This document shows positions 13,342 through 46,501 of a stretch of 64,000 nucleotides of DNA, piece after piece (the stretch's first letter is position 1; every line of letters starts with the position of its first letter). The translations under genes were made by a program, and so were the position numbers. The stretch spans positions 34,941-98,940 of the forward strand of contig CALRGV010000003.1 of the NCBI GenBank assembly GCA_943358175.1. Direction: 5' to 3'. The notes beneath the pieces were generated by a model, which had not been told where the DNA came from, did not search any database, and was given only the letters and a program-made list of their open reading frames with translations. Source of the DNA: Candidatus Peribacteria bacterium. GTDB taxonomy: Bacteria > Patescibacteriota > Gracilibacteria > UBA1369 > LOWO2-01-FULL-3.

Positions 13342-13350
13342 GTAGAGACT

Positions 13351-32335: not shown

Positions 32336-33373
32336 ATGGCTAAAGAAAAATTACTTTCTACACAACTGGAACCTGTAGATTGTTTGGCTGAAGTAAGTGC
32401 TGAATTAGTGAGTATTGCCCCTGGAATTGAAGAGGGCGAAATTCGTGATTTAAATTTGTTTTTGACTCCTTCGGCAGAGATTGATGGCATTCAAACTCAA
32501 TTGCAGCAAGGGATTTTGCGACATATGCATCACAGAAGTGTAGAATTACCAGATAGATATAATTCAACAAATGAAGCCGGAGTTTTCAGTTGTAGAAGGC
32601 TGAAGGGAGCTGGTCTTTATAGTGGCCCAAGTGAAGAGTGGTTACACAAAGTAAGGAATGTAAAAAAAGATCAAACCGGATTAGTTCTTGGTTTACAGTC
32701 ATTGCCAGAATTTCAAGGCGCTTTTGATGCTCATACAAGACTTGTTCAAATGGGAATTGAGACTGAATTTCCTCTCGGCGCTCTCAAGCTTGGTGAAATT
32801 ATTTATCAAAATAGAGATGGTGTTTCCAGAGTGGCAATTGGTGAGGCATTTGATGATGCCGGCCTGCCGCCTGAGTATAAAGAAATTCCTTTCGTAATTA
32901 GGGTTGATGCGATTGGTATTAATCATCGTCTTAAGGATTACATTTTTGCAGGGGAACTTCTCTACAACGCTGAACTAGATACCGAGAAAGTGAGAGCTAT
33001 GTTGATGGAAGACGTGACAGCCTACTTACTACAAGAAGCAAAAGTTTTAGGAAATGACTTGCCAGACATTGAGGGAAATTTAGATTTGTACCTAGAATTT
33101 ATTCTAAAGAGAATTTATAAAAACGTTGCATTGCTTCACAAAAATGGGGGAGTGCACGGACAGCTTACTGAACAAAATTTAACAATGGATGGAAAATTTA
33201 TTGATTATGACACTTTGAAGTGGCTTTCGGGAGATATTTTTGAAGAAAAAAGACAGGCAGATCTTGTTAGACTTGAAGTTAGTGCAAGAGCTTTTCTACA
33301 GGTGTGGACAAAGGATCCTGGCAAAGTTGAAAAACTTTTAGAAACTGCTAAAAAAGAATATGGAAAATTTTGA
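32336..33373 (+). CDS. hypothetical protein, possible protein-kinase-like/APH-like fold
   Basis: 345 aa. The C-terminal ALLHKNGGVHGQLTEQNLTMDGKFIDYD resembles the lH..g..HgDl...N......iDfd catalytic segment of Kdo/APH/RIO-type kinases, but has Gln where the catalytic Asp is expected. Confidence 0.3.
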   Translation: MAKEKLLSTQLEPVDCLAEVSAELVSIAPGIEEGEIRDLNLFLTPSAEIDGIQTQLQQGILRHMHHRSVELPDRYNSTNEAGVFSCRRLKGAGLYSGPSEEWLHKVRNVKKDQTGLVLGLQSLPEFQGAFDAHTRLVQMGIETEFPLGALKLGEIIYQNRDGVSRVAIGEAFDDAGLPPEYKEIPFVIRVDAIGINHRLKDYIFAGELLYNAELDTEKVRAMLMEDVTAYLLQEAKVLGNDLPDIEGNLDLYLEFILKRIYKNVALLHKNGGVHGQLTEQNLTMDGKFIDYDTLKWLSGDIFEEKRQADLVRLEVSARAFLQVWTKDPGKVEKLLETAKKEYGKF

Positions 33374-34325
33374 AAGACGTACAAATGATCTCGGAGATAA
33401 TGAGAGGTTGGTGCTATTTCTAGGTACCGAACGAGGCCTTCAAGTAATGCAAAGGATAGTTCAGGACAGAATTGGTGAAGTGGCCGCTGTTTGTGTGCAA
33501 TATGATACTGGGTATGGTGCTCAGGCAAGTGAAGAAATCGCCAGAGTAGCAAAAGAGGCAGGTGCAGATGTCTACTCTTCTAATGATGTGAAATCTACTC
33601 AATATGCTGAATTAATAAGAAGATATGATGCCAATACAGCTCTTTGTATAAATTGGCGAAAGCTTTTTCCTATGGATGCTGTGAATGCTGCACACAGGGG
33701 GCTCACTGTAGCTCATGATAGTTTACTGCCACATTTGAGAGGATTTGCCCCATTAAACCATTCACTAAGATTGGGAGAAAACAAAACCGGGGTAACACTC
33801 TTTTACGCAGCTAAAGAAACGGATTCAGGGGATATTATTGGTGCCAAGGAAACTGCAATTGGCAGTGATGAATATGTGAGAGAGGTGAGAGATAGGGTTA
33901 CTGGATTGACTGTAGAATTAGTTTCGGAAGAATTGCCTAGGATATTGGCCGGTAGATCTGTGGGATCACCACAGGATGAATCAAAAGCAACTTTCGGGGT
34001 GAGACTTACTCCAGATGATGGACGCATTGATTTTTCTAGAACCAGAAGAGAAATATTCAATTTAATTAGGGCCACATCTCATCCATATCCGGGAGCTTTT
34101 ACTGGTTTGGAAGGTAGAGAAATGAGAGTATGGACAGCTTCTTTGCCTGAAGATACTCCAGTGTTAGCAACTACAATTCCAGGAAGAGTAGTGAAAAGAG
34201 AAGAGAACAGGGGTGTTTTTGTTTCTGCCGGTGACGGTGCAATTCTACTGGAAAATGTAGAAATAAATGGAGATAACGCTAGTGCAGATGCCTTTATCAG
34301 AAATCATTCCACAACCCTCAAATAA
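33360..34325 (+). CDS. formyltransferase (Fmt/ArnA-N-terminal type; putative sugar N-formyltransferase)
   Basis: VAHDSLLPHLRGFAPLNHSLRLGENKTGVTLFYAAKETDSGDII (the HxSLLPxxRG...D motif set), plus a C-terminal domain PYPGAFTGLEGREMRVW. The start overlaps the upstream gene by 14 nt. Confidence 0.8.
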   Translation: MENFERRTNDLGDNERLVLFLGTERGLQVMQRIVQDRIGEVAAVCVQYDTGYGAQASEEIARVAKEAGADVYSSNDVKSTQYAELIRRYDANTALCINWRKLFPMDAVNAAHRGLTVAHDSLLPHLRGFAPLNHSLRLGENKTGVTLFYAAKETDSGDIIGAKETAIGSDEYVREVRDRVTGLTVELVSEELPRILAGRSVGSPQDESKATFGVRLTPDDGRIDFSRTRREIFNLIRATSHPYPGAFTGLEGREMRVWTASLPEDTPVLATTIPGRVVKREENRGVFVSAGDGAILLENVEINGDNASADAFIRNHSTTLK

Positions 34326-35351
34326 ATGAAAGAAACACTACTTATTACAGGAGCTGGTGGATATGTGGGAACACATTTAGTTGAGCAAGCTTTAGATAAA
34401 GGTTATCGCGTCAAAGCGCTTGACACCTATGTTTTTGGCAAAGATAAAATGGCTCACGTTGAGGCGAGAGATGATCTAACAATGATTAAGGCTGACATTA
34501 GAGGAGTAGGTAAAGACTTGTTTAAAGATGTAGATTTTGTAGCGGATTTAGCAGGGTTTTCAAATGATCCTTCAGCAGAAATTGATCCAGATCTTACGAG
34601 GTCAGTGAATTTTGGTGGATGTGCAAATGTAGCGAAAATGGCGAAGGGAAGTGGTGTTAAACGTTATGTGGAAATGTCTTCTTGCTCCGTTTATGGAGCC
34701 AATGAAGGTATCTGTGATGAATCTACGAGTCCCAATCCACAATCTTTATATGCACAAATAAAAGCTGAAGTAGAAGAGCACCTTATGGAACTTTCTGATA
34801 ATGATTTTTGCGCTACAGCATTAAGGAATTCTACATGTTTTGGACTGAGTAATCGCATGAGATACGACTTAGTTGTAAATCTTATGTCTTTGAATGCTTT
34901 TGAAGATAGGAGTTTGAAAGTTTTTGGAAGCGGCAACCAGAGAAGACCTCTAATTCACGCAGCAGATTCTGCCGCAATTGTATTACATTTACTTGAGCAA
35001 GATCCTTCATTAGTTCGTGGGGAAATATTTAATATAGGTAGTGAAAATACTAGAGTTATAGATTTAGCGGATAGAATTCGTGGCGTTGTTGGTGATGCCC
35101 TTGGTGAAGAAATAGGAGTTGAACACGTAGGAGAAAACACAGACATTAGAGATTATGAGGTTTCTTTTGCTAAATTTACAAATAGATTTGGAATTGTAAC
35201 AAGTTTATCGGTAGAGGACGGATCACGTGAAATAATTAGAGCCTTGATGGGGGGAAAAGCTTTGCCCAATCTAGACACTATGACTTTGCAATTTTATCAA
35301 TCATTAATGCATAAATATGGAAGTTCCTTTTTATCGACATTCGGTCAATAA
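34326..35351 (+). CDS. NAD-dependent epimerase/dehydratase (extended SDR)
   Basis: LLITGAGGYVGTHL, SSCSVYG and YAQIK (YxxxK). The start immediately follows the formyltransferase stop. Confidence 0.8.
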   Translation: MKETLLITGAGGYVGTHLVEQALDKGYRVKALDTYVFGKDKMAHVEARDDLTMIKADIRGVGKDLFKDVDFVADLAGFSNDPSAEIDPDLTRSVNFGGCANVAKMAKGSGVKRYVEMSSCSVYGANEGICDESTSPNPQSLYAQIKAEVEEHLMELSDNDFCATALRNSTCFGLSNRMRYDLVVNLMSLNAFEDRSLKVFGSGNQRRPLIHAADSAAIVLHLLEQDPSLVRGEIFNIGSENTRVIDLADRIRGVVGDALGEEIGVEHVGENTDIRDYEVSFAKFTNRFGIVTSLSVEDGSREIIRALMGGKALPNLDTMTLQFYQSLMHKYGSSFLSTFGQ

Positions 35352-36453
35352 AGACGATATAGCTCGAGTTGTGTCTACCCTTGAGGGGATGTTTTTGACG
35401 ACCGGAGGAGTTACTACTGAGTTTGAATGTAAATTTGCGGATCTTTTTGAAGTGAATCATTGTATTGGAACTACCAATTGCACAAGTGCCGCTGAATTAG
35501 CTTTAAGAATTTGGGATGTAGGTCCAGGCGATGAAGTTATCGTTCCTACGATGAGTTATGTAGCCACGGCTCAATCAGTGGCGCTACGCGGGGCAAAACC
35601 AGTTTTCGTGGACAGCGATGGGCAAACAGGTTTGATAGACTTAAATCAAATAGAAGCGGCTATTACGGAAAACACGAAAGTCATTATGCCGGTACACTTG
35701 TATGGAGTGATGGTGGATATGGTTGCTCTTAAGGTGATTGCAGATAAACACGGATTAAAAATTTTAGAGGATAGTGCTCACGCTGTAGTCTCATCGAGAG
35801 ATGGAATTAAACCAGGGCAAATGAGTGATGCTGCAGTTTTTAGTTTTTATGCTACTAAAAATATTACCAGTGGAGAAGGAGGAGCTTTAATTTGTAACGA
35901 TGATAAATTTGCTGAGGATTTTCGTCGCGGTACTTGTTGTGGAGTGACAAAAACGGCTCATAGCAGACGTAAAGAGGGAGAGAAAGCCTATGTTGGTTAC
36001 GACAGTGTTCAAGTTGCCGGGAAGTGCAATATGACCAATATTCAAGCAAGTTTGCTCATTGGCCAGATAGATAGACTTCCTATGGACCGAGCAAAAAGAG
36101 GTGAATTAGTTGCACTATATAGAAAACTTTTAGCAGACTTTGGTCCTGTGGAATTGCCTCATGCACCAGATGGTATAGATAGTTCACACTACGTGATGGT
36201 CGCTTTACTCCAAGATGGAACAAGAGATGGTATTTTTAGGACTTTTGGAGAAAAAGGAATTGGTTGCGCTGTTAATTTTGATCCAATCCACTTGAAAACA
36301 ATTTTTAAACAGTTGAGTGGTTATAAAGAAGGTGATTTTCCAGTTGCTGAAAATTGGGGAAGAAGGTGTATTACATTACCTCTCTATAACGGACTAGAAG
36401 AAGAGCAGGTGAGATATGTAACTGATACGATTAAAGCAGCTTATGGAAAATAA
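35317..36453 (+). CDS. DegT/DnrJ/EryC1/StrS-family PLP-dependent sugar aminotransferase (AT1)
   Basis: N-terminal VPFYRHSVNKDDIARV..., EDSAHAV, and FSFYATKNITSGEGGALI (catalytic Lys). It overlaps the SDR gene by 35 nt. Confidence 0.85.
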   Translation: MEVPFYRHSVNKDDIARVVSTLEGMFLTTGGVTTEFECKFADLFEVNHCIGTTNCTSAAELALRIWDVGPGDEVIVPTMSYVATAQSVALRGAKPVFVDSDGQTGLIDLNQIEAAITENTKVIMPVHLYGVMVDMVALKVIADKHGLKILEDSAHAVVSSRDGIKPGQMSDAAVFSFYATKNITSGEGGALICNDDKFAEDFRRGTCCGVTKTAHSRRKEGEKAYVGYDSVQVAGKCNMTNIQASLLIGQIDRLPMDRAKRGELVALYRKLLADFGPVELPHAPDGIDSSHYVMVALLQDGTRDGIFRTFGEKGIGCAVNFDPIHLKTIFKQLSGYKEGDFPVAENWGRRCITLPLYNGLEEEQVRYVTDTIKAAYGK

Positions 36454-37729
36454 ATTACAAATTTTAGGAGCTGCCCAAGCATTTGGATTTGGAGGGATTA
36501 GTGAAATGTGTGCAATTGAGGGAGCCCTTAGAATAGACCCGAGATCTGAAGATTGCACTGTGCACATGATTGAAAATACACAGTTCAAAGCTGTTGTAGC
36601 TGGATCCAGGCAAAGATTTCAATTACATAGTGGTGATATTTTTGATAGTGATCAATTTAAGGATGTTGATGTGGTAGTTCCAAGTTATGATACGGCAGCT
36701 GTATTCTATGGGTGGTTCAATAATTTGCCAGTTTATTTTTACGATGGAATGCTTTGGTTTTGGGATTTTGAAAAATACGAGCAAAAATTAGATGCTGAAA
36801 TTTCAGAGCTTGAATCATTAAAGGCTTCTTCTAACTTGGAAGCTTTGAAACAAAAATATCAAGAATATTTAGGGAATGATTTTCATTTCACTGTTTTAAT
36901 TGCCTATCATTTAGCAAAAAAAATTTATGCGAGAGGGGCTTTAGGCGTAAACGAAAGAGTTTCAGCAATGGGGGAATTAGGTAAAAAAATTCAAGTGATA
37001 GGGGCAATGATAGATCCTTTAGTTGATCCTAACGAGAAAAGCTCTGAAGGTGAACACGTATTGGTGACACTGAGTGGCAGTTTAGCTCCAACATTAAGTT
37101 TCGAGCAGAACATGGTTTTTGCCAGAGGGGCATTGGCCTTTGCTCGTGAGGCTCATGACAAGTTCGAAGTGGATATTCCATTTATTTTTTCTTGTCATCC
37201 AAAAATTTTCGAGCAACTGACGAAGGAAGGATCCTGTGATTCTTTACCTAATAATTTCAAGGTTGTTCCAAGCTTTCCCTATGAAGAAAATTTGAGAATG
37301 ATCAGAGATGCTTATGCTGTTTTTGCTTCACCAGGATTTTCTACTGTTCAAGAGGCTGCTCATTTTAGAACTCCATTATTTTTCTTGCCGGAGCAAAATG
37401 GAGGTCAACCAACAGGCTTTCAGACTTTGAAGAAAGCTGGATATCCAACAGAACATAATCTCACGGTTACTGATAAAATATATGGAGGTGATTGCAACAT
37501 TGGAGATTACGACACTCCGCGATTATACAGAAATGTTGGTGAATTATGGAGTGACGAAATGGCTGAAGTGAGAGAAGGAGTTTTGAGAAGCTTTGTAGAT
37601 GCGTTGAGAGACAAAGATGAAAGGGAAGCGCTTACAAATGGTCAGAGAGAAGCCGTTTCCAGTATGATTGGTGGTTTTGATGGCGCACGGGAAATGGTGA
37701 ATGATTTACTCAGTGATCTACTGAAATGA
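36443..37729 (+). CDS. hypothetical protein, possible GT-B fold (MurG/PseG-like) enzyme
   Basis: 428 aa. The C-terminal AVFASPGFSTVQEAAHFRTPLFFLPEQNGGQP resembles the G..t..E....g.P.i..P....Q motif of GT28/GT1 enzymes. The N-terminal half is not recognised. Confidence 0.35.
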   Translation: MENKLQILGAAQAFGFGGISEMCAIEGALRIDPRSEDCTVHMIENTQFKAVVAGSRQRFQLHSGDIFDSDQFKDVDVVVPSYDTAAVFYGWFNNLPVYFYDGMLWFWDFEKYEQKLDAEISELESLKASSNLEALKQKYQEYLGNDFHFTVLIAYHLAKKIYARGALGVNERVSAMGELGKKIQVIGAMIDPLVDPNEKSSEGEHVLVTLSGSLAPTLSFEQNMVFARGALAFAREAHDKFEVDIPFIFSCHPKIFEQLTKEGSCDSLPNNFKVVPSFPYEENLRMIRDAYAVFASPGFSTVQEAAHFRTPLFFLPEQNGGQPTGFQTLKKAGYPTEHNLTVTDKIYGGDCNIGDYDTPRLYRNVGELWSDEMAEVREGVLRSFVDALRDKDEREALTNGQREAVSSMIGGFDGAREMVNDLLSDLLK

Positions 37730-38700
37730 ATCAAAAAAACTACTTAAATTTTGCTGAAGGAGAGGCTGGTGTCTATCGTGATGGAGAGCTTATTCCATTT
37801 GCGGAAGCACATCTTGGTAGTGGAGAACATACGGATTCTACTTTAATTGTAACTTGTTTTAATCGTGCCCATACTATTAAGCAAGCTATTGAAAGTGCGT
37901 TGAGATGCCAGCAAGAAAAAGGATCCATTGATGTTCTAGCCGTAGACGATGGGTCTACAGATGGAAGTGTCGATATCCTGAGAGGTTTTGCCCAACAAAG
38001 ACTCATTAAATTAGTAGCATTGGCAAATAATTCCGGTTCCGAAGCTTTGCCTAAGAATATTGCAGCCTTCTTAGCAAATTCAGATTATTTATCCTATTTA
38101 GATAGTGATGATCGCATAGGAGAAGTAGATGCTTTTGATACATCTCTAGCTGCACTTAAGGGAAAGGATGAATTTGTAATGAGTGTTTCAAACTTAGTAT
38201 TTGAATTGGGTTGTACTCTCGATGAAGTGGCGGCAAATATGCCATGGTTACTTGATGTTGATAATTATGAACCATCAGCAGTTATTAGAAATACTGTAGC
38301 CAAGCAATACAAAATGAGAGTTGCGAAAGAACATTCAGTATTTGAACTCTTGAACCATGGCTACTACGATGCTTTTAAACTAATGAGAAGAAGTGCATTT
38401 TTAAAGAGTGGAGGAGTAGTAGAAGATATGGGTTCATGTGGAGATTTTGGTACTTATCTGCGACTAAATCGTTTTGGTAGGTGTTTAGCCATTCCTAGGG
38501 ATTTTTATGTCTATGTGATTAATGGCGAGAATGATAGCTTTTATTCCGATGGCAAAAGACAGTGGCTAGAAGCTCAACACCGATCTTTTTCCTTAGGCGA
38601 AATTCGTCACAGGGGAATTAAATATGATGAATTACAATCTCATTGCGAACCGGAGTTTTTTACCAGGTACAAATTTACTCGCGCAGAAGTTGAAGAATAA
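37726..38700 (+). CDS. family 2 glycosyltransferase
   Basis: LIVTCFNRAHTIKQAIESAL...VLAVDDGSTDGS...SYLDSDD. ATGA overlap with the upstream gene. Confidence 0.8.
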   Translation: MNQKNYLNFAEGEAGVYRDGELIPFAEAHLGSGEHTDSTLIVTCFNRAHTIKQAIESALRCQQEKGSIDVLAVDDGSTDGSVDILRGFAQQRLIKLVALANNSGSEALPKNIAAFLANSDYLSYLDSDDRIGEVDAFDTSLAALKGKDEFVMSVSNLVFELGCTLDEVAANMPWLLDVDNYEPSAVIRNTVAKQYKMRVAKEHSVFELLNHGYYDAFKLMRRSAFLKSGGVVEDMGSCGDFGTYLRLNRFGRCLAIPRDFYVYVINGENDSFYSDGKRQWLEAQHRSFSLGEIRHRGIKYDELQSHCEPEFFTRYKFTRAEVEE

Positions 38701-39427
38701 ATTGATGATCTCTTGGATCATATAAAGTTTCACCTCCATTCGCTATTTGGGCCATTTCAGCAAGTTGTGATTGTGATTGAAAGTGATAGTGTTCGAAAAC
38801 TTTTGGATCAAAATATTGTAAGTCTATTTGCTGACTTGCGTATGCTGCCATCGCTTCCGCTTTTCTGGAATCTGGAGGCACAGCCATTGATTGCCATGAT
38901 TTATGTCGGGCTATTCTCTCATTATGAGTAATTTCCTCCCCCTTTTTTGAATAGAGTGGTGTCTCACAAACTGTGATGTTATTTTGAGTTTCACTAAGTA
39001 TTTTCCAGATTGCTGCCACAACGAGATCGTGATCCAAATGACCACCTTCATAAGAATGAGTGATGATGAGATCAGGATCTAATTCTTTAATTATTCCCCT
39101 TACTCCACTGAGAAGTTGAGTAATTTGTAGATGAAGGCGGGAATCTGTTAGCCCTGCAAAATGTAATGGTCGGCTAATGCCTGAAATATCTGCAACCTTT
39201 TTTGCCTCTGCCCGTCTAAAGGCAATATATTCCGGGCCATATAGATGCGGGGTATTTGGATAGTAGTATTCAGGAGAATCTTCCTCCAGAGGCGCTCCAT
39301 CAGTGACAAACGCTAAGGATAGGAGCTGAGAACATTCGCGCATAGCATGAGTAGCTCCGATAACCTCATCATCGGGATGTGCATATATTGCCAGTGGGCT
39401 TTTTGATTTAAAAAACATAAGGAACAA
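38675..39427 (-). CDS. PIG-L/LmbE-family N-deacetylase
   Basis: LAIYAHPDDEVIG and HSYEGGHLDHD zinc-ligand motifs. It is the only minus-strand gene in the island and overlaps the GT2 3' end by 26 nt. Confidence 0.8.
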   Translation of the reverse strand: MFLMFFKSKSPLAIYAHPDDEVIGATHAMRECSQLLSLAFVTDGAPLEEDSPEYYYPNTPHLYGPEYIAFRRAEAKKVADISGISRPLHFAGLTDSRLHLQITQLLSGVRGIIKELDPDLIITHSYEGGHLDHDLVVAAIWKILSETQNNITVCETPLYSKKGEEITHNERIARHKSWQSMAVPPDSRKAEAMAAYASQQIDLQYFDPKVFEHYHFQSQSQLAEMAQIANGGETLYDPRDHQFILQLLRE

Positions 39428-39474
39428 AGGTACGTTTTTTGGCTTTAACTTGTCAAGTGGTATATATTTTAGAC

Positions 39475-40197
39475 ATGAATGATGAATACTCGATTTTATT
39501 CGACAAATATTTGAAACTCAGTGACGAGAAGAAAGCTTTAAACGACTGTGTTTTTAAGGCTATAGAAGATTCGTTTGGGAGAAAGTCCTTAGATATTTTA
39601 GATGTAGGATGTGGCGAGGGGAAATTGAGTAGTTCCTTAGCAAAAGAAGGCCACAAAGTTTCCGCTATAGACGTGAGAGACTCATTTATTGAAGCTAATG
39701 TAAACTTTGAGAGTATTGGTTTTTTTGAGTATTCAACGGAGAAAAAGTTTGATCTGATCATTATGGCTTACTTTTTGTGGGAACTTCCTTTGTATAAATG
39801 GGATGATGTTTTTTTGAAATGCAGTCAAATGATTAAGGGAGGAGGGAAAATTTTTGTGGTGGATGTCTGTAATGAAGGGAAATTTGATAATATTTTTTTT
39901 GAATTCAATCTTATTCAAGATAGGGAATCTCAGGATCTTCAAGATTACTGGGAGAGATATTGTGAGAAAAAATGCGCGAGAGAAAAGAAAATCAATTTTA
40001 ATTCTTCACTTACCGCAGCTAATCCTTCCGACATATATGAAGCCATCGCTTTCTTCTTTAAAGAGCCATTATTAAAAGATATTTATATTAAGAATAAACA
40101 AGAGTTTATTGATTTTTTTGAGAGGAAAAAAAAGAAAAATGGGAAAATAATCCTAACCAGTAAACATGCTCTTGACGTAATTGGGAATACCTTGTAG
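39475..40197 (+). CDS. class I SAM-dependent methyltransferase
   Basis: ILDVGCGEGKLSSSLAKEGHKVSAIDV (motif I) and FDLIIMAYFLWE. I prefer the ATG at 39475 to the listed TTG at 39439. Confidence 0.7.
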   Translation: MNDEYSILFDKYLKLSDEKKALNDCVFKAIEDSFGRKSLDILDVGCGEGKLSSSLAKEGHKVSAIDVRDSFIEANVNFESIGFFEYSTEKKFDLIIMAYFLWELPLYKWDDVFLKCSQMIKGGGKIFVVDVCNEGKFDNIFFEFNLIQDRESQDLQDYWERYCEKKCAREKKINFNSSLTAANPSDIYEAIAFFFKEPLLKDIYIKNKQEFIDFFERKKKKNGKIILTSKHALDVIGNTL

Positions 40198-40223
40198 GGT
40201 TACATCTTTTCTTAATCGGTTAT

Positions 40224-41126
40224 ATGGAAGACCCACAAGGCATAGAAACTAGTTTCCAAATAGTAAATAGAGTAGCTGCTCAGGATGGAAGCATTTCTAA
40301 ATATATTCTTGAGACACCTGGACAAAAAGGGACCTTTGAATTGGGGACATTTACATCAGAGGGCACTTTTGATATTTGTGTTTCAACTATGGCTGGCTGT
40401 CCTTTACAGTGTCAGTTCTGTGCCATTCCGTATAGTGAAATACCATATGAAAGAAAACTCTCAGCTGGAGAGTTACATGAACAGGTATCTCTTGCCTTTC
40501 AGAACAGAGGAGAAATCGAAAATGTAGTGGTTGGATTTATGGGTAACGGAGAACCATTCCTCAATTTTGACGCTGTAGTTGATGCTTCATCTAGAATATT
40601 GAATGATCCAAGTCTTTCAATTAGTTCATTGAATATATCCACTACCGGAGTAAGACCTGAAAGAATTTCTGAGCTTGCAAATACTGATTTTGGGAGATCT
40701 GGAAGAGGGAAGATTCAGTTCAGTTTGCTTTCTCTTGATCCAGCAATACGTAATAAATTTATTCCTAAGGTTAAATCTCTGGAAGAGTGCCTACCTCACT
40801 TAGATTATTTTGCAGCCACCACTGGACAACCCGTGAAGTACAACGTGATGTTAGTTGATGGACTTAATGATTCTATTGAACACGCAAAGGAGTTAGCAAA
40901 ATTTATTCAGGCAGCACCACATTTAAGACGAATAAAGGTTTCTACATTTAATCCCTTCCCCGGGATTGAGATGAAGCCAGCAACCGCAGAAAAATTTGAA
41001 TCTTTCATCGCTCATTTGGAGTCACAGGGAGTAGATGTGAAAGTATTTAAAGGAGATGCAGACGAAAAAGTTTTGGCAAGTTGTGGGCAAATGAGAGCAA
41101 GAGTTGGCAGAATCTTAACTCAATAA
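40224..41126 (+). CDS. RlmN/Cfr-type radical SAM methyl synthase homolog lacking the N-terminal accessory domain
   Basis: DICVSTMAGCPLQCQFC (extra Cys, six residues, then CxxxCxxC), GFMGNGEPFLN, NISTTGV, FSLLSLDPAIRNKFIP, STFNPFPG and LASCGQM align block by block with RlmN. Only about 57 aa precede the first Cys. Confidence 0.8.
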   Translation: MEDPQGIETSFQIVNRVAAQDGSISKYILETPGQKGTFELGTFTSEGTFDICVSTMAGCPLQCQFCAIPYSEIPYERKLSAGELHEQVSLAFQNRGEIENVVVGFMGNGEPFLNFDAVVDASSRILNDPSLSISSLNISTTGVRPERISELANTDFGRSGRGKIQFSLLSLDPAIRNKFIPKVKSLEECLPHLDYFAATTGQPVKYNVMLVDGLNDSIEHAKELAKFIQAAPHLRRIKVSTFNPFPGIEMKPATAEKFESFIAHLESQGVDVKVFKGDADEKVLASCGQMRARVGRILTQ

Positions 41127-41725
41127 TGATGTTAAACCGAATAGTTCTTGCATCAAGTAATCCTGAAAAGCAAAGAGTTGCCAATGAAGTTTGGAGGCCT
41201 GACATGCAGGTTTTATCCCCGCGTGATTTTGGTTATCAATTACCAGATGACATAGAAGGCGAAGATGATTATTCAACAAACGCACGAATCAAAGCTGATT
41301 GGGTAGGTGGTCGCGTTAAATTGCCTGTGATAGCTGATGATAGTGGTATGGAGATTAAAGGATTGGAAGGAAAGCCTGGTGTTAGCACTCGCAGATGGGC
41401 TGATGGATCAAATGACGAAAGACTTATCACGAGGACTGTAGAAGAAATAAGTAGGCTTTCCGAAAGTGAACGTGCTTGTACTTTTAGAATTTGCGCTATC
41501 TATAGAGATGTTAATGGAAAGACTACAGAAGTTGTGGAACAAGATAATGGAGTGCTCTTGCTTGAACCTCAAGGAGATATTTTGCCAGGCCACCCTTTGG
41601 CCTCACTTCTATATCTACCAGAATATGGTGCTACTTTAGCTGAACTAAGAAATAACCCAGATTTTGTAGCCAAAGATGTACGCGCTCACAAGCGGTTAAA
41701 AGAATTATTGTTAAAATCAATTTAA
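41126..41725 (+). CDS. HAM1/RdgB-family non-canonical NTP pyrophosphatase
   Basis: IVLASSNPEKQRV and PVIADDSGMEIKGLEGKPGVSTRRWA. The start overlaps the upstream stop (TAATG at 41124-41128). Confidence 0.75.
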   Translation: MMLNRIVLASSNPEKQRVANEVWRPDMQVLSPRDFGYQLPDDIEGEDDYSTNARIKADWVGGRVKLPVIADDSGMEIKGLEGKPGVSTRRWADGSNDERLITRTVEEISRLSESERACTFRICAIYRDVNGKTTEVVEQDNGVLLLEPQGDILPGHPLASLLYLPEYGATLAELRNNPDFVAKDVRAHKRLKELLLKSI

Positions 41726-41726
41726 T

Positions 41727-42884
41727 ATGGAAGATTTAAAAGTGCCAGAAAGGGTAATACCTGCCGCTCAAATACATTTTCCGGAAGAAGATATTGTCGC
41801 CATGCAAAGTGAGTTTGCTGATATTTTGAGGACAGGACAGCTTGTCTTAGGAGAAAGAACCAAAATTTTCGAGAGAGAATTTGCTGACTATTTAGGTGCA
41901 GATAAAGCTCTAGCGGTAAATAGCGGCACTTCTGCTTTAGAAATTGCTATGAGGTGTATTGGAGTTGAAGGGAAAAATGTAATCGTCCCTGCAAATACTT
42001 TTTATGCTACTGCCGGTGCCGTATTACATGCCGGTGGAAATTTGAAATTTGGAGATATCGAAAGTGAAACTTTTGGATTAGACAGTGAGAATGCATCTAG
42101 ATTAATTGATGAAAATACTGCTGCAATAGTGGTAGTACATATTGGAGGAACTCCCTCTCGCGACTTGATGAAATTAAGACAGCTTTGTGACGAGAGAGGA
42201 ATTAAATTAATTGAAGATAGCGCTCATGCTCATGGCTCTTCAGTGAATGGTCAAAAAGTTGGAACCATTGGAGATGTAGGAACCTTTTCATTTTTCCCTA
42301 CAAAAGTAGTGACTAGTGGAGAAGGTGGAATGGTAGTTGCTAAAGATCCACGCGTAATTGAAGAAGGACGTATTTATAGAGACCAAGGAAAAGCATCCGG
42401 AGGAAGAAATTTCCATACGCATCAAGGCTATGCCTGGAGAATGAGTGAAATTCATGCCTTGCTTGGTATTTCACAATTAAGGAGATTAGATGAATTTATC
42501 GATCATAGAAAAATGATTGCTCGCATTTATGACGATGGTTTAAATGGATTGCCGGATTTAAGTCCAGCGGTAATTCCTGCCGGTTCAGAAAGTAATTATT
42601 ATAAGTATGTTGTAAATTTGAGGCCTTCAATTAATAGAGAATTATTAAAAGCAAAGATGAAAGAATTAGGAGTTTCGCTAAGTGGTGAAGTTTATGCCGA
42701 TGGACTACATTCTCAACCTGTTTTTCAGAATAAATTTGAGGGAGGAGAAAATGGATTTCCTAACGCGGATCATTTTTGTGCAAATCATATTTGCTTACCT
42801 GTCTCTGCAGTCGTGAGTGAAGAAGATGCTAAATACGTAATTGAAAAATTATATGAATTTTGTGGATATTCCAAAACAAGATGA
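41727..42884 (+). CDS. DegT/DnrJ/EryC1/StrS-family aminotransferase (AT2)
   Basis: LGERTKIFEREFADYLG, NSGTSALEIA, EDSAHAHG, and FSFFPTKVVTSGEGGMVV (catalytic Lys). Confidence 0.85.
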   Translation: MEDLKVPERVIPAAQIHFPEEDIVAMQSEFADILRTGQLVLGERTKIFEREFADYLGADKALAVNSGTSALEIAMRCIGVEGKNVIVPANTFYATAGAVLHAGGNLKFGDIESETFGLDSENASRLIDENTAAIVVVHIGGTPSRDLMKLRQLCDERGIKLIEDSAHAHGSSVNGQKVGTIGDVGTFSFFPTKVVTSGEGGMVVAKDPRVIEEGRIYRDQGKASGGRNFHTHQGYAWRMSEIHALLGISQLRRLDEFIDHRKMIARIYDDGLNGLPDLSPAVIPAGSESNYYKYVVNLRPSINRELLKAKMKELGVSLSGEVYADGLHSQPVFQNKFEGGENGFPNADHFCANHICLPVSAVVSEEDAKYVIEKLYEFCGYSKTR

Positions 42885-43950
42885 ATCACTTCAGGCTGAA
42901 ATTTTAACTGCAATAGCTGATATTATTCGTCGTGGAGATTTTATTTTGGGACGAGAAGTCGGTGAATTGGAAGAAATGCTCAAAGACTATTTAGGGGTTA
43001 AGAATGCCATTCTAGTTTCTTCAGGAACGGATGCAATGGCCTTAGCGCTGAGAGCTCTCGATTTACCTAAAGGCAGCTCTGTAATAACTACTCCATTTAC
43101 ATTTTTTGCCACTAGCGAAGTGATTTTAAACGAGGGGCTCATACCTAAATATGTTGATATAGATCCATCTACTTATAATATTTCACCAGAAGCTATTGCT
43201 GCTGCGATTGATTATAATACTTCTGCTATTATGCCAGTTCATATTTTTGGAGGGCCATGTGATATAGAAGGAATCATGAGGGTTGCAAACAAGCAGGGAC
43301 TCCCTGTAATTGAGGATTGCGCTCAAGCTTTTGGAGCAAGCGTAGGCGGAAAAATGGTGGGAAGTTTTGGTCAGTTCGGATGCTATTCATTTTATCCTAC
43401 AAAAAATTTAGGAGCATATGGTGATGCTGGTTTAATGGTTACTGATGATGACGCTATGGCCGTAAAAATTAGAATATTGAGAAATCAGGGCTCTGCTGCT
43501 CCATACAGACATGATTTTGCAGGATTTAACTCTAGGTGCGATACGGTTCAGGCGGCTATTTTAAAAGCAAAACTGCCACATGTTAACGCATTGAATGATA
43601 GACGTAGAGAAATTGCAGCACGTTATAGAGAAGGTCTCCGGAAAGTTAAAGGATTAATTTTGCCAGAAGAATCTGCAGGCACTAATCATGTATATCACCA
43701 ATTTACTATTCAAGTAGAAGCGCGAGACGATTTGAGAAAAGCTCTAAGCGAGCAAGGAATTCCCACCGCCGTTTATTATGATATGGGTTTAAATGAACAA
43801 GAGGCTTTAAGTGGTATTGAGTCATCCGTTTATTTGCCACAGACAAAAGAAGTTTGTTCACGTGTCTTATCCTTGCCAATTCATCCAGGCTTAACTGAAG
43901 AAGATGTAGCTAGAGTAATTACCAATGTAAATAAATTATTAGATGTCTGA
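42853..43950 (+). CDS. DegT/DnrJ/EryC1/StrS-family aminotransferase (AT3)
   Basis: MNFVDIPKQDESLQAEIL..., EDCAQAFGA, and YSFYPTKNLGAYGDAGLMVT (catalytic Lys, WecE-like context). I prefer the ATG at 42853 to the listed TTG at 42841. Confidence 0.85.
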   Translation: MNFVDIPKQDESLQAEILTAIADIIRRGDFILGREVGELEEMLKDYLGVKNAILVSSGTDAMALALRALDLPKGSSVITTPFTFFATSEVILNEGLIPKYVDIDPSTYNISPEAIAAAIDYNTSAIMPVHIFGGPCDIEGIMRVANKQGLPVIEDCAQAFGASVGGKMVGSFGQFGCYSFYPTKNLGAYGDAGLMVTDDDAMAVKIRILRNQGSAAPYRHDFAGFNSRCDTVQAAILKAKLPHVNALNDRRREIAARYREGLRKVKGLILPEESAGTNHVYHQFTIQVEARDDLRKALSEQGIPTAVYYDMGLNEQEALSGIESSVYLPQTKEVCSRVLSLPIHPGLTEEDVARVITNVNKLLDV

Positions 43951-44986
43951 ATTTTGCGTAGAAAAACTAGGTCTATTCCCGCAGAAATTAGCAGCGGTTC
44001 GTGAAGCCCGGAATGGTATTGTTGACACTAGTTATCCAGTGAGCGTGGAGCTTTCTTTGACCGACAAGTGTAACTTTGAATGTGATTGGTGTTCTGATCT
44101 CATGCTTCGTGCAAAGCAAAATGGTCACATGCAAGAAAGAGTAGTTTATAGCTTACTCGATGACCTTGCTGAAGGTGGTACAAAAGGTGTGGTTATTGAA
44201 GGTGGTGGTGAACCAACTTTACATAAAAGTTTTGCAAACATTACAAGAAGAATTGGTGAAACCGGAATGGCCGCAGGCTTGATTACTAATGGAAGTAAAT
44301 TTGATTATGAAGACGTTTTTGGCGTTTTTGAATGGGTGAGAGTGAGCTTAGATGTTTCTTCTCCTGCTCAAATGAACGAGTTGAAATCTAGACAAAAAGC
44401 CATGTTCGATAGAGTGATAGCAAATATTGAAAGGATGGCTAGATTAAAAACTCACACCGTCTTGGGAGTTTCGTACATTATCACCAGAAAAACTAGAGAG
44501 GGAATTGCTGAAATGGTCCAACAATTAAGAGATATGGGAGTAGATTATGTGCAAATTAAACCGGTAGTTGGGCAGCCTCAACTTTCTCTAGATAATTATT
44601 CTGAATTTGAAGATTTGCGGAAATATACAAGAGATGGATTTAAAGTTTTTGTTGATGCATTGAAAGAGAATACTACGAGGGGAAATGCCGGGCTACCTTG
44701 TACAGCTCACAGCTTATCATCAATTGTTGGAGCAAATGGTTCTGTCTATTTATGTGGAAGACTTAATTCTTATCCAGACTGGCCGGCAATTGGTAATATA
44801 AACGACGCTTCATTTAATGAAATTTGGAATAGCTCTGAAAGATTCAGGCAAGCAAATTTAACTTTAGATAAAGATTTTTGTGCTGCAAAATGTCCAGAAT
44901 GTAGATTAACTAAATTCAATGTAGCGCTCGATAAGGGAGAGGATCTTACTCCACCTGATGATGTTAAAACCCCTAATTTTATTTAA
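43943..44986 (+). CDS. radical SAM enzyme with Cys-rich C-terminal (SPASM/twitch-like) extension
   Basis: LSLTDKCNFECDWCSD (CxxxCxxC) and VIEGGGEPTL. The C-terminal Cys cluster is CTAHS...YLCGRL...CAAKCPEC. It overlaps AT3 by 8 nt. Confidence 0.75.
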   Translation: MSEFCVEKLGLFPQKLAAVREARNGIVDTSYPVSVELSLTDKCNFECDWCSDLMLRAKQNGHMQERVVYSLLDDLAEGGTKGVVIEGGGEPTLHKSFANITRRIGETGMAAGLITNGSKFDYEDVFGVFEWVRVSLDVSSPAQMNELKSRQKAMFDRVIANIERMARLKTHTVLGVSYIITRKTREGIAEMVQQLRDMGVDYVQIKPVVGQPQLSLDNYSEFEDLRKYTRDGFKVFVDALKENTTRGNAGLPCTAHSLSSIVGANGSVYLCGRLNSYPDWPAIGNINDASFNEIWNSSERFRQANLTLDKDFCAAKCPECRLTKFNVALDKGEDLTPPDDVKTPNFI

Positions 44987-46071
44987 TGAGCGAAGAACCC
45001 TTAAGAGAAGTAAGAAATCAAAATTTGGCTCTAGCATATGCCCCAGTTGTTAAAAACAATATGGAGGAAGAAGGTGATGATTTTGGAATTCCACTTATAG
45101 ATTTATATGTTAACGATGCGTGCAATTTACGATGCAATTTTTGTATGACAGCTTTTGGGCCCACTGTTTTGCCTGTAAGTGCTGTGCCGGTAATTGCTCA
45201 GCTTAAACCACGAGTTATAACTATTACCGGTGGTGGAGAGCCTTCAATTTATAGAGACGGTGAAAATAGAATTGATGATTTCGTAGCCGCTATTCGTAGA
45301 GAAATGGGACCTATACCAATCGGAATGATGTCCAATGGGGTGAAAGCTTTGCCAGAAGGCGTATTGAGCGAATTAGATTGGTTGAGAGTTTCTTTAAATG
45401 CTCCAAATCGTGGACTTTATAATCAAGTTCATAACAGAGATAAATTTGAGGATGTGATGAAAAATATAACGGATTATCTGAATGGGCCTTTGGAAAAATT
45501 AGGCATTGGTTTTGTTTTCAACGAATTGACTGCTCACGCTCTAATTGATTTCGCTCGTACTATATTTGATGGAATTAAACCTCAAACAGATGCAGATAAA
45601 TTTTCAGGACTTACTTTGCAGTTTAGGCCTGAAGCCAATGAGGACTATAGTAGGTTTTTGATAAATATTGGTCTGAGACAAAAATTGATTGTAGAAATCG
45701 GAGTCTTAAATGGAGAGTTTAGAGATTTTCTTCTTAAGCAAACAAATATTATGCAAGTCTTGGATAATGAATGCTTTCTGCTTCATGCTGCTTTTAGGAA
45801 TTGCTTCATATCCTTTTTACAGATGAATATTGATGCGAGAGGAGATGCTTATCCTTGTCCTCAAAAGGCGCATGAAAAAAAAGATAGCTATGGAAATATC
45901 TTCGATGATGGATTTGTCTCAGGCGTCAGAGATAGAGTGAGGCAGTCTTTTGGATGCCATAATTCAGATAGTTGTGGCGGATGTGCCCAATCAAGAGTCA
46001 ACTCCATTTATGAAGGCGTGGACTTTTCTAAACTCTCCTTTGACGGCAAGGTTAAGCCAGTTTTCTTTTAG
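44986..46071 (+). CDS. radical SAM enzyme, second copy, with Cys-rich C-terminal extension
   Basis: YVNDACNLRCNFCMT (CxxxCxxC) and ITITGGGEPS. C-terminal Cys residues are AYPCPQKA...CHNSDSCGGCAQS. TAATG overlap with the upstream gene. Confidence 0.7.
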   Translation: MSEEPLREVRNQNLALAYAPVVKNNMEEEGDDFGIPLIDLYVNDACNLRCNFCMTAFGPTVLPVSAVPVIAQLKPRVITITGGGEPSIYRDGENRIDDFVAAIRREMGPIPIGMMSNGVKALPEGVLSELDWLRVSLNAPNRGLYNQVHNRDKFEDVMKNITDYLNGPLEKLGIGFVFNELTAHALIDFARTIFDGIKPQTDADKFSGLTLQFRPEANEDYSRFLINIGLRQKLIVEIGVLNGEFRDFLLKQTNIMQVLDNECFLLHAAFRNCFISFLQMNIDARGDAYPCPQKAHEKKDSYGNIFDDGFVSGVRDRVRQSFGCHNSDSCGGCAQSRVNSIYEGVDFSKLSFDGKVKPVFF

Positions 46072-46291: not shown

Positions 46292-46501
46292 ATGTCACAC
46301 GGAAAAAGTCAATTTACAACCTGGTATTGCAAGGAAGATGTAGATGGAAAACCTTGTAATCTGGCACACCAAAGCATAACAGCTTACGACAAGCGTCGTG
46401 ATAGCGAAATTGCTAAGGATTTGAGCCTGTTTTGTCCTAAATGCCGCAAGCATACTACTCACAAAAGGAAGGATACAAGAAAAGGATCAGCTACTAAATA
46501 A
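46292..46501 (+). CDS. zinc-ribbon protein resembling ribosomal protein L33
   Basis: 69 aa. AYDKRRDSEIAKDLSLFCPKCRKHTTHKRKD parallels Y.t.KNKRn.pekLeLkKYCP.C.KHT.HrE.K of zinc-type L33. The first Cys pair is spaced Cx8C rather than CxxC, and the protein is longer than usual. Confidence 0.45.
   Translation: MSHGKSQFTTWYCKEDVDGKPCNLAHQSITAYDKRRDSEIAKDLSLFCPKCRKHTTHKRKDTRKGSATK

Follow-up and report, generated by a model that had tools for sequence, protein, structure and literature searches.

What chemistry joins two DegT-family aminotransferases to the two radical S-adenosylmethionine (SAM) enzymes encoded directly after them? The question is raised by a stretch of 64,000 nucleotides from an uncultivated Candidatus Peribacteria bacterium (contig CALRGV010000003.1; hereafter the window), in which four genes, AT2, AT3, rSAM1 and rSAM2, form a cassette at the downstream end of a 14-gene amino-sugar cluster (32336-46071, about 14 kb; Table 1). 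A preliminary description had likened the cassette to butirosin biosynthesis, where the radical SAM dehydrogenase BtrN makes a ketone that a DegT-family aminotransferase, BtrS, then aminates. The coupling of radical SAM and DegT enzymes on a sugar is a logic known from butirosin and desosamine, and we find it plausible here; an aminocyclitol substrate is less likely than a sugar derived from N-acetylglucosamine (GlcNAc), and a desosamine-type scheme fits the gene set equally well. We propose, tentatively and with a confidence that stops just short of even, that each radical SAM enzyme makes the ketone for a partner aminotransferase on a GlcNAc-derived, probably nucleotide-activated sugar: rSAM1 for AT2 at a C4-type position, and rSAM2 for AT3 at C3.

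The four genes and their products

The four open reading frames (ORFs) lie where they had first been placed, co-directional on the forward strand. Their junctions overlap by between 1 base (rSAM1/rSAM2) and 32 bases (AT2/AT3); the mechanically called ORF of AT3 begins at a TTG at 42841, the ATG form of 365 aa being the call in other, public assemblies. Both radical SAM proteins belong to the radical SAM superfamily by their scores against PF04055 (rSAM1, 46.8 bits; rSAM2, 32.7 bits, 1e-7; gathering cut-off 29.5), and their AlphaFold2 (AF2) models (pLDDT 95 for rSAM1, 87 for rSAM2) display the beta/alpha radical SAM core. They had been thought to look like paralogues, and are indeed distant ones, with 23% identity over about 190 aa (E = 1e-12).

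AT2 and AT3 are DegT/DnrJ/EryC1/StrS aminotransferases (PF01041, DegT_DnrJ_EryC1; 1e-101 and 2e-113). Each keeps the Schiff-base lysine, AT2 in the motif FFPTKVVTSGEGG (FFPTK) and AT3 in the motif FYPTKNLGAYGDAG (FYPTK), and not the histidine of the ColD/E1 dehydratases. The earlier suggestion that they belong to different subfamilies holds. AT3 is close to the C3 aminotransferases WbpE (6e-78), QdtB (8.5e-74) and DesV (PDB 2oga; 2e-71), its top PDB match being 7b0d (7e-99), which is annotated as a glutamine--scyllo-inositol transaminase; AT2 is closer to C4-type enzymes, with TlmJ (1e-50) and perosamine synthetase as best PDB matches and PseC as best NCBIfam match (250 bits, under the 423.5 cut-off). 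The segment around and after the catalytic lysine is reported to separate C3 from C4 aminotransferases (bioRxiv 10.1101/2021.09.04.459008); it takes the form ...T-S-GEGG in AT2 and also in AT1, a third DegT aminotransferase encoded upstream, and both of these score best against PseC, TlmJ and perosamine synthetase.

Each radical SAM family keeps its own aminotransferase

Orthologous loci were fetched through rSAM1 and rSAM2 homologues and compared gene by gene. The closest relatives are metagenome-assembled genomes (MAGs) of Patescibacteria and Peribacteria. The gene order is kept in at least six separate loci: AT2-AT3-rSAM1-rSAM2 recurs in L086, L088, L003/L099, L087 and L007 (rSAM2 identities 66%, 47%, 47%, 45% and 38%, respectively), and L089 (74% rSAM2 identity) keeps AT3-rSAM1-rSAM2 up to its contig end. 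Around it lies a core, conserved across Patescibacteria, Peribacteria and Bacillus pseudomycoides, of a 345-aa protein, a GT-B-like protein, a GT2 glycosyltransferase, a PIG-L deacetylase, AT2, AT3 and rSAM2, usually together with rSAM1.

The B. pseudomycoides core (L005/L006; GCA_036962245, GCA_002572065) is without rSAM1 and has an extended short-chain dehydrogenase/reductase (SDR) beside AT2, with AT3 directly after rSAM2; its gene set is PIG-L, SDR, GT2, kinase-like protein, AT2, GT-B-like protein, rSAM2 and AT3. This locus also encodes a RelA/SpoT-family protein, a Nudix hydrolase and a SufS-like pyridoxal phosphate (PLP) enzyme, and, because transposase genes flank it, horizontal acquisition is suggested; a megablast search against a plasmid collection gave no match, and a plasmid origin was rejected.

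Members of the rSAM2 family are few: 5.8 billion clusters yielded 16 close homologues, and an exhaustive hidden Markov model search of 1.84 billion representatives found 5-6 (50% identity clusters) at E < 1e-120 and 83 at E <= 1e-30. It is always paired with AT3, in three architectures: AT3-rSAM1-rSAM2 in the Candidate Phyla Radiation (CPR), rSAM2-AT3 in Bacillus, and X384-rSAM2-AT3 in marine metagenomes (L091-L098, e.g. L092 8833-12178; rSAM2 identity 39-42%), where X384 is an unannotated 384-aa protein. The marine loci have neither rSAM1 nor a recognisable AT2, and the pair there belongs to a polysaccharide locus with two SDRs, a methyltransferase, an ABC exporter, a UDP-GlcNAc 2-epimerase and NeuB.

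The rSAM1 family is large (509 database matches at E <= 1e-5) and is spread over Desulfobacterota, Nitrospirota, Omnitrophota, Planctomycetota, Elusimicrobia, Lachnospiraceae and the CPR. A survey of 77 genome loci divided its surroundings into three contexts: nonulosonic-acid-like clusters in many, mostly anaerobic, phyla (context A); housekeeping neighbourhoods in termite-gut Deltaproteobacteria (context B, weighed below); and the CPR arrangements (context C). Outside context B a DegT gene adjoins the rSAM1 homologue in 23 of 37 loci, 21 of the 23 being AT2-like, and the pair often continues into PIG-L. Thus each radical SAM enzyme has an aminotransferase partner of its own, as had been supposed: rSAM1 goes with AT2-like genes and rSAM2 with AT3, across unrelated architectures.

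Context A carries the strongest comparative argument for a role of rSAM1 in ketone formation. The typical order there is [CT::rSAM1]-DegT-PIG-L-CT-WbqC-NeuB-PseG-like (CT, cytidylyltransferase-like), followed by a further radical SAM gene, a B12 radical SAM gene and a methyltransferase; L016/L001, L020, L026, L033, L034 and L047 are examples headed by fusions, and in L033 the genes score as PseC-, PseF-, NeuB/PseI- and PseG-like, all far under equivalog cut-offs. DegT is present in 15 of 17 such loci and any extended SDR in only 4 of 17, and the clusters mostly have neither a PseB/LegB-type SDR nor an N-acetyltransferase nearby. Since the usual 4-keto-forming enzyme is thus mostly missing from the neighbourhood, rSAM1 may supply the keto substrate of AT2; the absence of an extended SDR from 13 of the 17 clusters also fits the NAD-independent route that the preliminary description had put forward. 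The fusions bear on the substrate. Most rSAM1 homologues of about 45% identity are proteins of about 570 aa with an N-terminal cytidylyltransferase-like (PF02348/PF12804, SpsF-like) domain, which matches the PDB cytidylyltransferase 6oew at 2.7e-8 with a signature motif that looks altered, and this points to a nucleotide-linked substrate.

Conserved cysteines and a single auxiliary cluster

Eight cysteines of rSAM1 are 100% conserved in 120 homologues: C43, C47 and C50 of the CxxxCxxC motif, and C-terminally C253-x17-C271-x41-C313-x3-C317-x2-C320. The 16 rSAM2 homologues all retain C46, C50 and C53 (CxxxCxxC) and C273, C291, C330 and C333; most retain C263, and C324 is not conserved. The spacing is C273-x17-C291 (with Gx4 before C291)-x38-C330-x2-C333. 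In the wider rSAM2-like superfamily, the 150 best representatives keep C273, G286 and C291 wherever these align, and those that reach as far as C330 and C333 keep these too. The extra C-terminal cysteines on which the preliminary description had relied are therefore features of both families.

A full SPASM domain has 7-8 cysteines, in the pattern CX9-15GX4C ... CX2CX5CX3C ... C, and holds two auxiliary clusters. With five conserved C-terminal cysteines in rSAM1 and four in rSAM2, neither protein has such a domain, and of the SPASM or twitch domains first suggested it is the twitch type that stands. In profile searches rSAM1 passes the SPASM model PF13186 (38.3 bits, gathering score 21.5), and rSAM2 falls below both PF13186 (19.2 vs 21.5) and TIGR04085 (17.2 vs 27). 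A twitch domain is a C-terminal truncated SPASM domain with 3-4 cysteines on one auxiliary cluster, as in BtrN and MoaA (PMC9012708); the five and four cysteines, together with the Gx4C element, indicate at the level of sequence a domain of this truncated kind, with one predicted auxiliary cluster, in both rSAM1 and rSAM2. In BtrN, PqqE and SuiB, which carry out two-electron oxidations, low-potential Cys-ligated auxiliary clusters are thought to act as electron acceptors (PMC9012708). That the invariant 4-5 cysteines fit a twitch domain, and that such a cluster accompanies these two-electron oxidations, counts in favour of ketone formation.

SPASM-type enzymes also mature peptides that are made on the ribosome and modified post-translationally (RiPPs), and the preliminary description had offered as its alternative that both proteins cross-link or epimerise a ribosomal precursor peptide. 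The SPASM Pfam match, NCBIfam matches below threshold to PapB, WgkB, SCIFF and maturases of that kind, and the presence of SkfB, SuiB and CteB among the structural matches could all be read in that way. However, the window shares no conserved intergenic small ORF with L003, L005 or L007, since every cross-locus tblastn match fell inside a conserved large gene and was an antisense or out-of-frame shadow of it. With the radical SAM core beginning near residue 35-40, an N-terminal peptide-recognition (RRE) domain has no room; the auxiliary cysteines are only 4-5; and the fusions are to a cytidylyltransferase-like domain. Because the enzymes sit in carbohydrate clusters, where every neighbour is a sugar enzyme, we consider peptide maturation very unlikely indeed. 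The only Cys-containing small ORF nearby (46292-46501, forward strand, 69 aa) falls in the gap of 475 bp that follows rSAM2; its C-terminal FCPKCRKHTTHKRKD is like the zinc ribbon of ribosomal protein L33 (Pfam 3.5e-4, below cut-off), and it was rejected as a Cys/Gly-rich precursor.

Nearest characterised enzymes and the competing chemistries

Neither radical SAM protein belongs to the BtrN family by phmmer, profile or Foldseek comparison. As a single sequence against the PDB, rSAM1 matches BlsE best (3.8e-6), then BtrN (0.011, phmmer) and DesII (0.029), and rSAM2 matches MoaA best (8e-5). The rSAM1 family profile finds SkfB (7e-16), viperin-like proteins (6e-11), MoaA (2e-10), BtrN (3.9e-9, over the N-terminal 80 residues only), BlsE (1e-8) and DesII (2e-7); that of rSAM2 finds MoaA (1e-5) and DesII (0.1). 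All these sequence and profile matches are to the radical SAM core in general. The comparison of structure models that had been recommended brought out DesII and BlsE, not BtrN: in Foldseek searches with the AF2 models, DesII comes first for rSAM1 (8e-15; query TM-score, TMq, 0.61-0.67) and for rSAM2 (2e-11; TMq 0.60-0.64), and rSAM1 next matches SkfB, BlsE (TMq 0.67; target TM-score, TMt, 0.70), SuiB, PqqE and anSME; for the two proteins together, SkfB, BlsE and SuiB come close behind DesII. BtrN stands at rank 26 for rSAM1 (TMq 0.41), with SpeY at rank 48; for rSAM2 it lies outside the top 50, and phmmer gives no match of rSAM2 to it. The likeness to BtrN as a protein is accordingly given up.

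The proteins lie outside the BtrN family and probably outside the DesII family, and each represents a new family within the twitch/SPASM region of the superfamily; the folds nearest to their models, those of DesII and BlsE, are of enzymes that act on nucleotide-linked sugars. Curated families contain no characterised member or equivalog for either, and all homologue names are generic. The best NCBIfam match, a tungsten-cofactor maturase model, scored 82 bits where 380 are required and was not accepted as a name; all other matches likewise lay far below cut-off. Searches of the literature found no description of either family, so no homologue with a proven unrelated function, which would have spoken against the original idea, came to light.

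A strictly butirosin-like pathway, with BtrN-type dehydrogenases on a cyclitol or aminocyclitol, BtrS-like aminotransferases and an aminoglycoside-like pseudo-oligosaccharide as product, has to be weighed first. Its case includes the C-x17-C-x38-CxxC spacing of rSAM2, which resembles the auxiliary-cluster pattern of BtrN; the pairing of a PIG-L deacetylase with a glycosyltransferase, which is the logic of paromamine formation too (BtrM/BtrD); and the annotation of 7b0d, AT3's top PDB match. Two groups of distant or unusual loci add to it. L010-L012 (a Gammaproteobacteria MAG, an unclassified bacterial MAG and a Patescibacteria single-amplified genome) have, after alaS, a compact cassette of rSAM1, AT2-like DegT and PIG-L beside what, read off the sequences and not from a family search, appear to be a xylose-isomerase-like TIM barrel, a short-chain dehydrogenase and an APH-like kinase, a gene content reminiscent of inositol/inosamine metabolism.

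The second group consists of giant Omnitrophota proteins of 4,305-6,428 aa, the next-best matches of the rSAM2 profile after its orthologues: P0163 (4318 aa), P0164 (4305 aa) and P0165 (6428 aa; MCF7892147.1, Candidatus Omnitrophica, filling an entire 19.3-kb contig), with 2-5 rSAM2-like domains each. In Pfam scans P0163 and P0164 both have a dehydroquinate (DHQ)-synthase-like sugar-phosphate cyclase, a ROK kinase, an NAD epimerase/dehydratase (SDR), a phosphoribosyltransferase and AAA_28; a B12-binding domain was found in P0164, not in P0163, these being the two proteins scanned, and DegT was detected in neither. They look like an entire pathway fused into one polypeptide, and their cyclase-like domains are the only hint of a cyclitol connection, in distant relatives only.

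Set against this, neither the window cluster nor any of L003, L005, L007, L086, L087 and L088 has a DHQ-synthase-like cyclase (PF01761), and an inositol-phosphate-synthase-like cyclase was likewise not found in the window cluster or the orthologous loci. The absence of a cyclase disfavours a strict aminocyclitol pathway, BtrN is the poor match described above, and most relatives lie in surface-polysaccharide or nonulosonic-acid-type clusters; we therefore give this pathway little credence.

The structural matches also bring desosamine biosynthesis into view. DesII abstracts the C3' hydrogen of a TDP-hexose; with a 4-ammonium substrate ammonia is eliminated, giving a 3-keto-4-deoxy sugar, and with a 4-hydroxyl substrate the sugar is dehydrogenated to the 3-keto form (PMC11434129). 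Either outcome would make the product a substrate for a C3 aminotransferase. A pathway of this type would have AT2 aminate C4, a radical SAM enzyme, most likely rSAM2, eliminate the C4 amine, AT3 aminate C3 and the methyltransferase of the cluster N-methylate, so that the product would be a 3-amino-3,4-dideoxy sugar with no vicinal diamine, and rSAM1 would supply the initial 4-keto group or have some other role. This chemistry is documented for DesII (PMC11434129), which is the top Foldseek match of both proteins (TMq 0.60-0.67 overall), and the gene set mirrors the Des set, with a C4-like AT2, a C3-type AT3 near DesV and a SAM-dependent methyltransferase; the B. pseudomycoides set of SDR, AT2, rSAM2 and AT3 would already suffice. 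On the other side, profile similarity to DesII is marginal, the invariant auxiliary-cluster cysteines contrast with a DesII structure paper that makes no mention of an auxiliary cluster (PMC11434129), and the methyltransferase is missing from L005 and L007. The marine rSAM2-AT3 loci, being without a recognisable AT2, argue in addition that rSAM2 does not always need a C4-amino substrate. We regard elimination in this form as unlikely, though deserving serious thought.

The matches to BlsE, viperin-like proteins and MoaA raise a further possibility, which is that one or both of the radical SAM enzymes carry out some other reaction (epimerisation as in NeoN, decarboxylation as in BlsE, diol dehydration as in AprD4, ring contraction or C-C bond formation as in HpnJ after glycosyl transfer and deacetylation, or nucleotide dehydration as in viperin) and that SDRs give the aminotransferases their keto substrates. 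BlsE is the best single-sequence PDB match of rSAM1 and among its best structural ones, viperin-like proteins and MoaA score level with the sugar enzymes in profile searches, several loci do contain SDRs, and the termite-gut homologues have no aminotransferase neighbour. Against this, the adjacency of rSAM1 to AT2-like genes and of rSAM2 to AT3 persists across unrelated architectures, SDRs are missing from most nonulosonic-acid-like loci, and a uronic-acid-forming dehydrogenase, which would be the source of a BlsE-type substrate, is not seen in the cluster. Such other chemistries we think improbable, to much the same degree as the desosamine-type elimination.

A proposed route to a poly-amino sugar

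From gene presence, domain content, cysteine conservation, synteny and the co-occurrence of each radical SAM enzyme with its aminotransferase, we infer a substrate, a regiochemistry and a two-electron oxidation rather than an elimination, as follows. The 5'-deoxyadenosyl radical formed by each enzyme would abstract a hydrogen from a hydroxyl-bearing sugar carbon; the resulting alpha-hydroxyalkyl radical would collapse to a ketone, with the single twitch-like auxiliary [4Fe-4S] cluster as the likely electron acceptor; and the partner DegT aminotransferase would turn the ketone into an amine. In this way rSAM1 would feed AT2 at a C4-type position and rSAM2 would feed AT3 at C3. PIG-L could free the C2 amine and the accessory genes could methylate or formylate, and the product, a poly-amino sugar, would be placed by the two glycosyltransferases on an envelope or secreted acceptor.

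Besides the pairing, the cysteines, the carbohydrate surroundings of the cluster core, the missing dehydratase and the fusions, three findings count for this ketone-forming route: AT3 falls among C3 aminotransferases that use 3-keto sugars (WbpE, QdtB, DesV); the enzyme with the closest fold, DesII, yields 3-keto sugars; and B. pseudomycoides, which is without rSAM1, has an extended SDR beside AT2.

Several points weigh against it. In both sequence and fold the two proteins are nearer to DesII, BlsE, SkfB and MoaA than to the proven dehydrogenases BtrN and SpeY. An auxiliary cluster is no proof of oxidation, MoaA being redox-neutral. With a cytidylyltransferase-like domain fused to rSAM1 homologues, the substrate could instead be a finished CMP-nonulosonic acid and not an early nucleotide hexose, and the genomes behind the nonulosonic-acid-like loci could have a PseB-type gene in another place. 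In L003/L099 and L088 rSAM1 occurs together with an additional GalE-like SDR, so that rSAM1 does not strictly exclude SDRs, and the order of reactions cannot be read from the order of genes. Context B supplies a counter-example: in 28 loci from termite-gut Deltaproteobacteria and Candidatus Adiutrix MAGs (including L039, L051, L053-L064, L066-L077, L085), an unfused rSAM1 homologue (36-43% identity) is encoded in a conserved neighbourhood of housekeeping genes (methionine aminopeptidase and a Sel1-like repeat protein before it, a RecO-like protein, pseudouridine synthase and FliI after it) with DegT absent nearby, and the rSAM1 family must therefore have at least one role without an adjacent aminotransferase.

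The surrounding cluster

Table 1. Genes of the amino-sugar cluster, in window positions.
Feature	Position	Strand	Assignment and matches
345-aa protein	32336-33373	+	no Pfam match; weakly protein-kinase-like; conserved cluster member
Formyltransferase	33360-34325	+	Pfam; NCBIfam formyltransferase/ArnA-N-like, 1.5e-48
Extended SDR	34326-35351	+	Pfam
AT1	35317-36453	+	third DegT aminotransferase, C4-type; Pfam; PseC-like, 285 bits
428-aa protein	36443-37729	+	weakly GT-B-like; Epimerase_2 weak, 1e-4; conserved
GT2 glycosyltransferase	37726-38700	+	PF00535, 2.5e-15; orthologues in all related loci
PIG-L/LmbE-family de-N-acetylase	38675-39427	-	PF02585, 2.3e-19; conserved
Class I SAM-dependent methyltransferase	39439-40197	+	Methyltransf_23/25/11, 1e-8 to 1e-9
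Short RlmN/Cfr-like radical SAM protein (class A)	40224-41126	+	TIGR00048, 3e-39
Ham1/RdgB-like non-canonical purine NTP pyrophosphatase	41081-41725	+	PF01725, 1.6e-20
AT2	41727-42884	+	DegT-family PLP aminotransferase, C4-like subtype
AT3	42853-43950	+	DegT-family PLP aminotransferase, C3 subtype
rSAM1	43943-44986	+	radical SAM, C-terminal truncated SPASM (twitch-like) domain
rSAM2	44986-46071	+	radical SAM, rare family, 4-Cys twitch-like C-terminal domain

The remaining genes of the cluster (Table 1) include two conserved members with faint resemblances only. The 345-aa protein, which has orthologues in L005 (6444-7544), L007 (3305-4420) and L087 (5442-6506), has an invariant motif, HG[Q/R]xTxxNxxMDGxxxDxDTxK, that resembles a kinase catalytic loop with the catalytic Asp replaced, and its profile matches kinase and pseudokinase loops in the PDB weakly (E = 0.15-0.5). 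The profile of the 428-aa protein likewise matches GT-B glycosyltransferases weakly (0.06-0.11), and its orthologues occur in L003, L005, L007, L086, L087 and L088, as does PIG-L, which also adjoins the rSAM1-DegT pairs of nonulosonic-acid-like clusters. The accessory module of formyltransferase, SDR and AT1 is present in L003, L086 and L088 and absent from L005, L007 and L087. The methyltransferase has orthologues in most CPR-type loci (L003, L086, L087, L088). The accessory genes (formyltransferase, SDRs, B12 radical SAM, SufS-like) gave sub-threshold family matches only, and these do not identify the product.

A third radical SAM protein is encoded between the methyltransferase and the cassette. 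This short RlmN-like protein (about 300 aa) aligns to positions 69-345 only of TIGR00048 (135 bits against a cut-off of 290) and is without the N-terminal RNA-recognition domain PF21016; its C52, C59, C63, C66 and C287 are invariant, C52 and C287 being the equivalents of the catalytic cysteines. It may be a class A methylase that acts on a small molecule or nucleotide and not on RNA. The subfamily is rare, with about 15 close homologues that share contigs with rSAM2, and the Ham1-like gene always directly follows it (window; L007 5592-7277; L086 5236-6748; L088 5093-6674). We considered whether the two genes could be a housekeeping insertion, and rejected this on the grounds that the pair recurs beside the cassette in L007, L086 and L088, and that the subfamily is rare and restricted to contigs bearing rSAM2. 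The pair and a B12-binding radical SAM gene, the latter found in L003/L099 and L087, exclude one another, which suggests alternative C-methylases for the same pathway.

A Pif1-like helicase gene borders the cluster upstream; on the downstream side follow the small L33-like ORF and a putative lipoprotein that is unannotated. Elsewhere the window is ordinary chromosomal DNA, with TopA, a GlmM-like mutase, NadD/NadE, glycosyltransferases, a SUF operon and an S-layer homology (SLH) protein. A YfhO-like membrane protein, more GT2/GT4 glycosyltransferases and an SLH beta-propeller protein are also encoded there (41-1885, 19734-21439, 60886-63447), and in L086 an SLH-domain protein (11139-13886) comes directly after rSAM2. 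These organisms probably carry an S-layer fixed to a secondary cell-wall polymer, where the sugar made by the cluster may end up. Every 2-kb bin of the window has a strongly positive GC skew (0.11-0.34), irrespective of gene strand, and G+C is 37-44%.

Significance

To our knowledge, the sugar-tailoring radical SAM enzymes form a short list of well-known names: BtrN, DesII, AprD4, BlsE and SpeY. The cassette adds two further sugar-linked families, neither with a characterised member and each having a DegT partner of its own. What is new is the pairing of each family with its own aminotransferase subtype, the apparent replacement of PseB/LegB by rSAM1 in the nonulosonic-acid-like clusters of anaerobes, and the conservation of the cluster in genome-reduced CPR bacteria. 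Such bacteria have few large conserved accessory pathways, of which this cluster is one, and its product is therefore probably important for the CPR envelope or for host interaction; the partial cluster of B. pseudomycoides offers a cultivable entry point.

If the enzymes are keto-sugar formers, they would provide an oxygen- and NAD-independent entry to amino-sugar and nonulosonic-acid biosynthesis in anaerobes, and this would explain why a PseB/LegB gene is missing from many such clusters. A more ambitious version of the idea, which we think unlikely to hold as a whole, is that rSAM1 and rSAM2 are NAD-independent nucleotide-sugar oxidants, that the rSAM1 family takes the place of the PseB/LegB-type dehydratase where nonulosonic-acid-like pathways begin in many anaerobic phyla and the rSAM2 family that of the WbpB/GnnA-type 3-dehydrogenases, that in the CPR cluster the two yield a vicinal C3,C4-diamino sugar or, after PIG-L, a 2,3,4-triamino sugar, and that the pathway has also recruited an RlmN/Cfr-like methylase without an RNA-binding domain together with a Ham1-like pyrophosphatase. 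Were that so, the RlmN-like enzyme would be the first class A methylase with a small-molecule or nucleotide substrate.

Comparison with known systems

With BtrN/BtrS the cassette shares a radical SAM enzyme, bearing CxxxCxxC and one Cys-ligated auxiliary-cluster domain, encoded beside a DegT aminotransferase, a glycosyltransferase and a PIG-L deacetylase in the same cluster, and an alcohol-to-amine route that would be independent of O2 and NAD. It differs in that the radical SAM proteins are about 100 aa longer than BtrN and without meaningful sequence or fold affinity to it, in the lack of a 2-deoxy-scyllo-inosose synthase, in a context that resembles surface-glycan and not antibiotic clusters, and in having two radical SAM families, each with its own aminotransferase subtype.

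The DesI/DesII/DesV/DesVI set is mirrored by a C4-type aminotransferase, a radical SAM enzyme that would act at a sugar carbinol carbon, a C3-type aminotransferase and a methyltransferase. However, sequence similarity to DesII is marginal and auxiliary-cluster cysteines are conserved here; two radical SAM enzymes are present, not one; and a 4,6-dehydratase is not consistently present.

In WbpB/WbpE, GnnA/GnnB, PseB/PseC and LegB/LegC, a keto-sugar-forming enzyme and a DegT aminotransferase act on a UDP-GlcNAc-derived substrate; WbpB and GnnA are NAD-dependent 3-dehydrogenases paired with C3 aminotransferases on UDP-GlcNAc(A), and PseB and LegB are SDR dehydratases paired with C4 aminotransferases. 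A like arrangement may exist here: WbpE is close to AT3 (6e-78), AT2-like genes have their best scores with the PseC/LegC models, and PseG-, PseI/NeuB- and PseF-like genes occur in rSAM1-type clusters, with matches far below equivalog cut-offs. In those systems the oxidant is an NAD(P) enzyme, whereas here it would be a radical SAM enzyme, and a PIG-L deacetylase takes the place of the usual N-acetyltransferase. Finally, the conserved core of a GT-B-like protein and PIG-L recalls MshA/MshB, BshA/BshB and BtrM/BtrD, in which a glycosyltransferase and a de-N-acetylase of the PIG-L family make GlcN-alpha-X, and the only NCBIfam matches of the PIG-L protein, although very weak (1.6e-6), are BshB1 and BshB2; in contrast to those systems, the cluster described here has no cysteine ligase.

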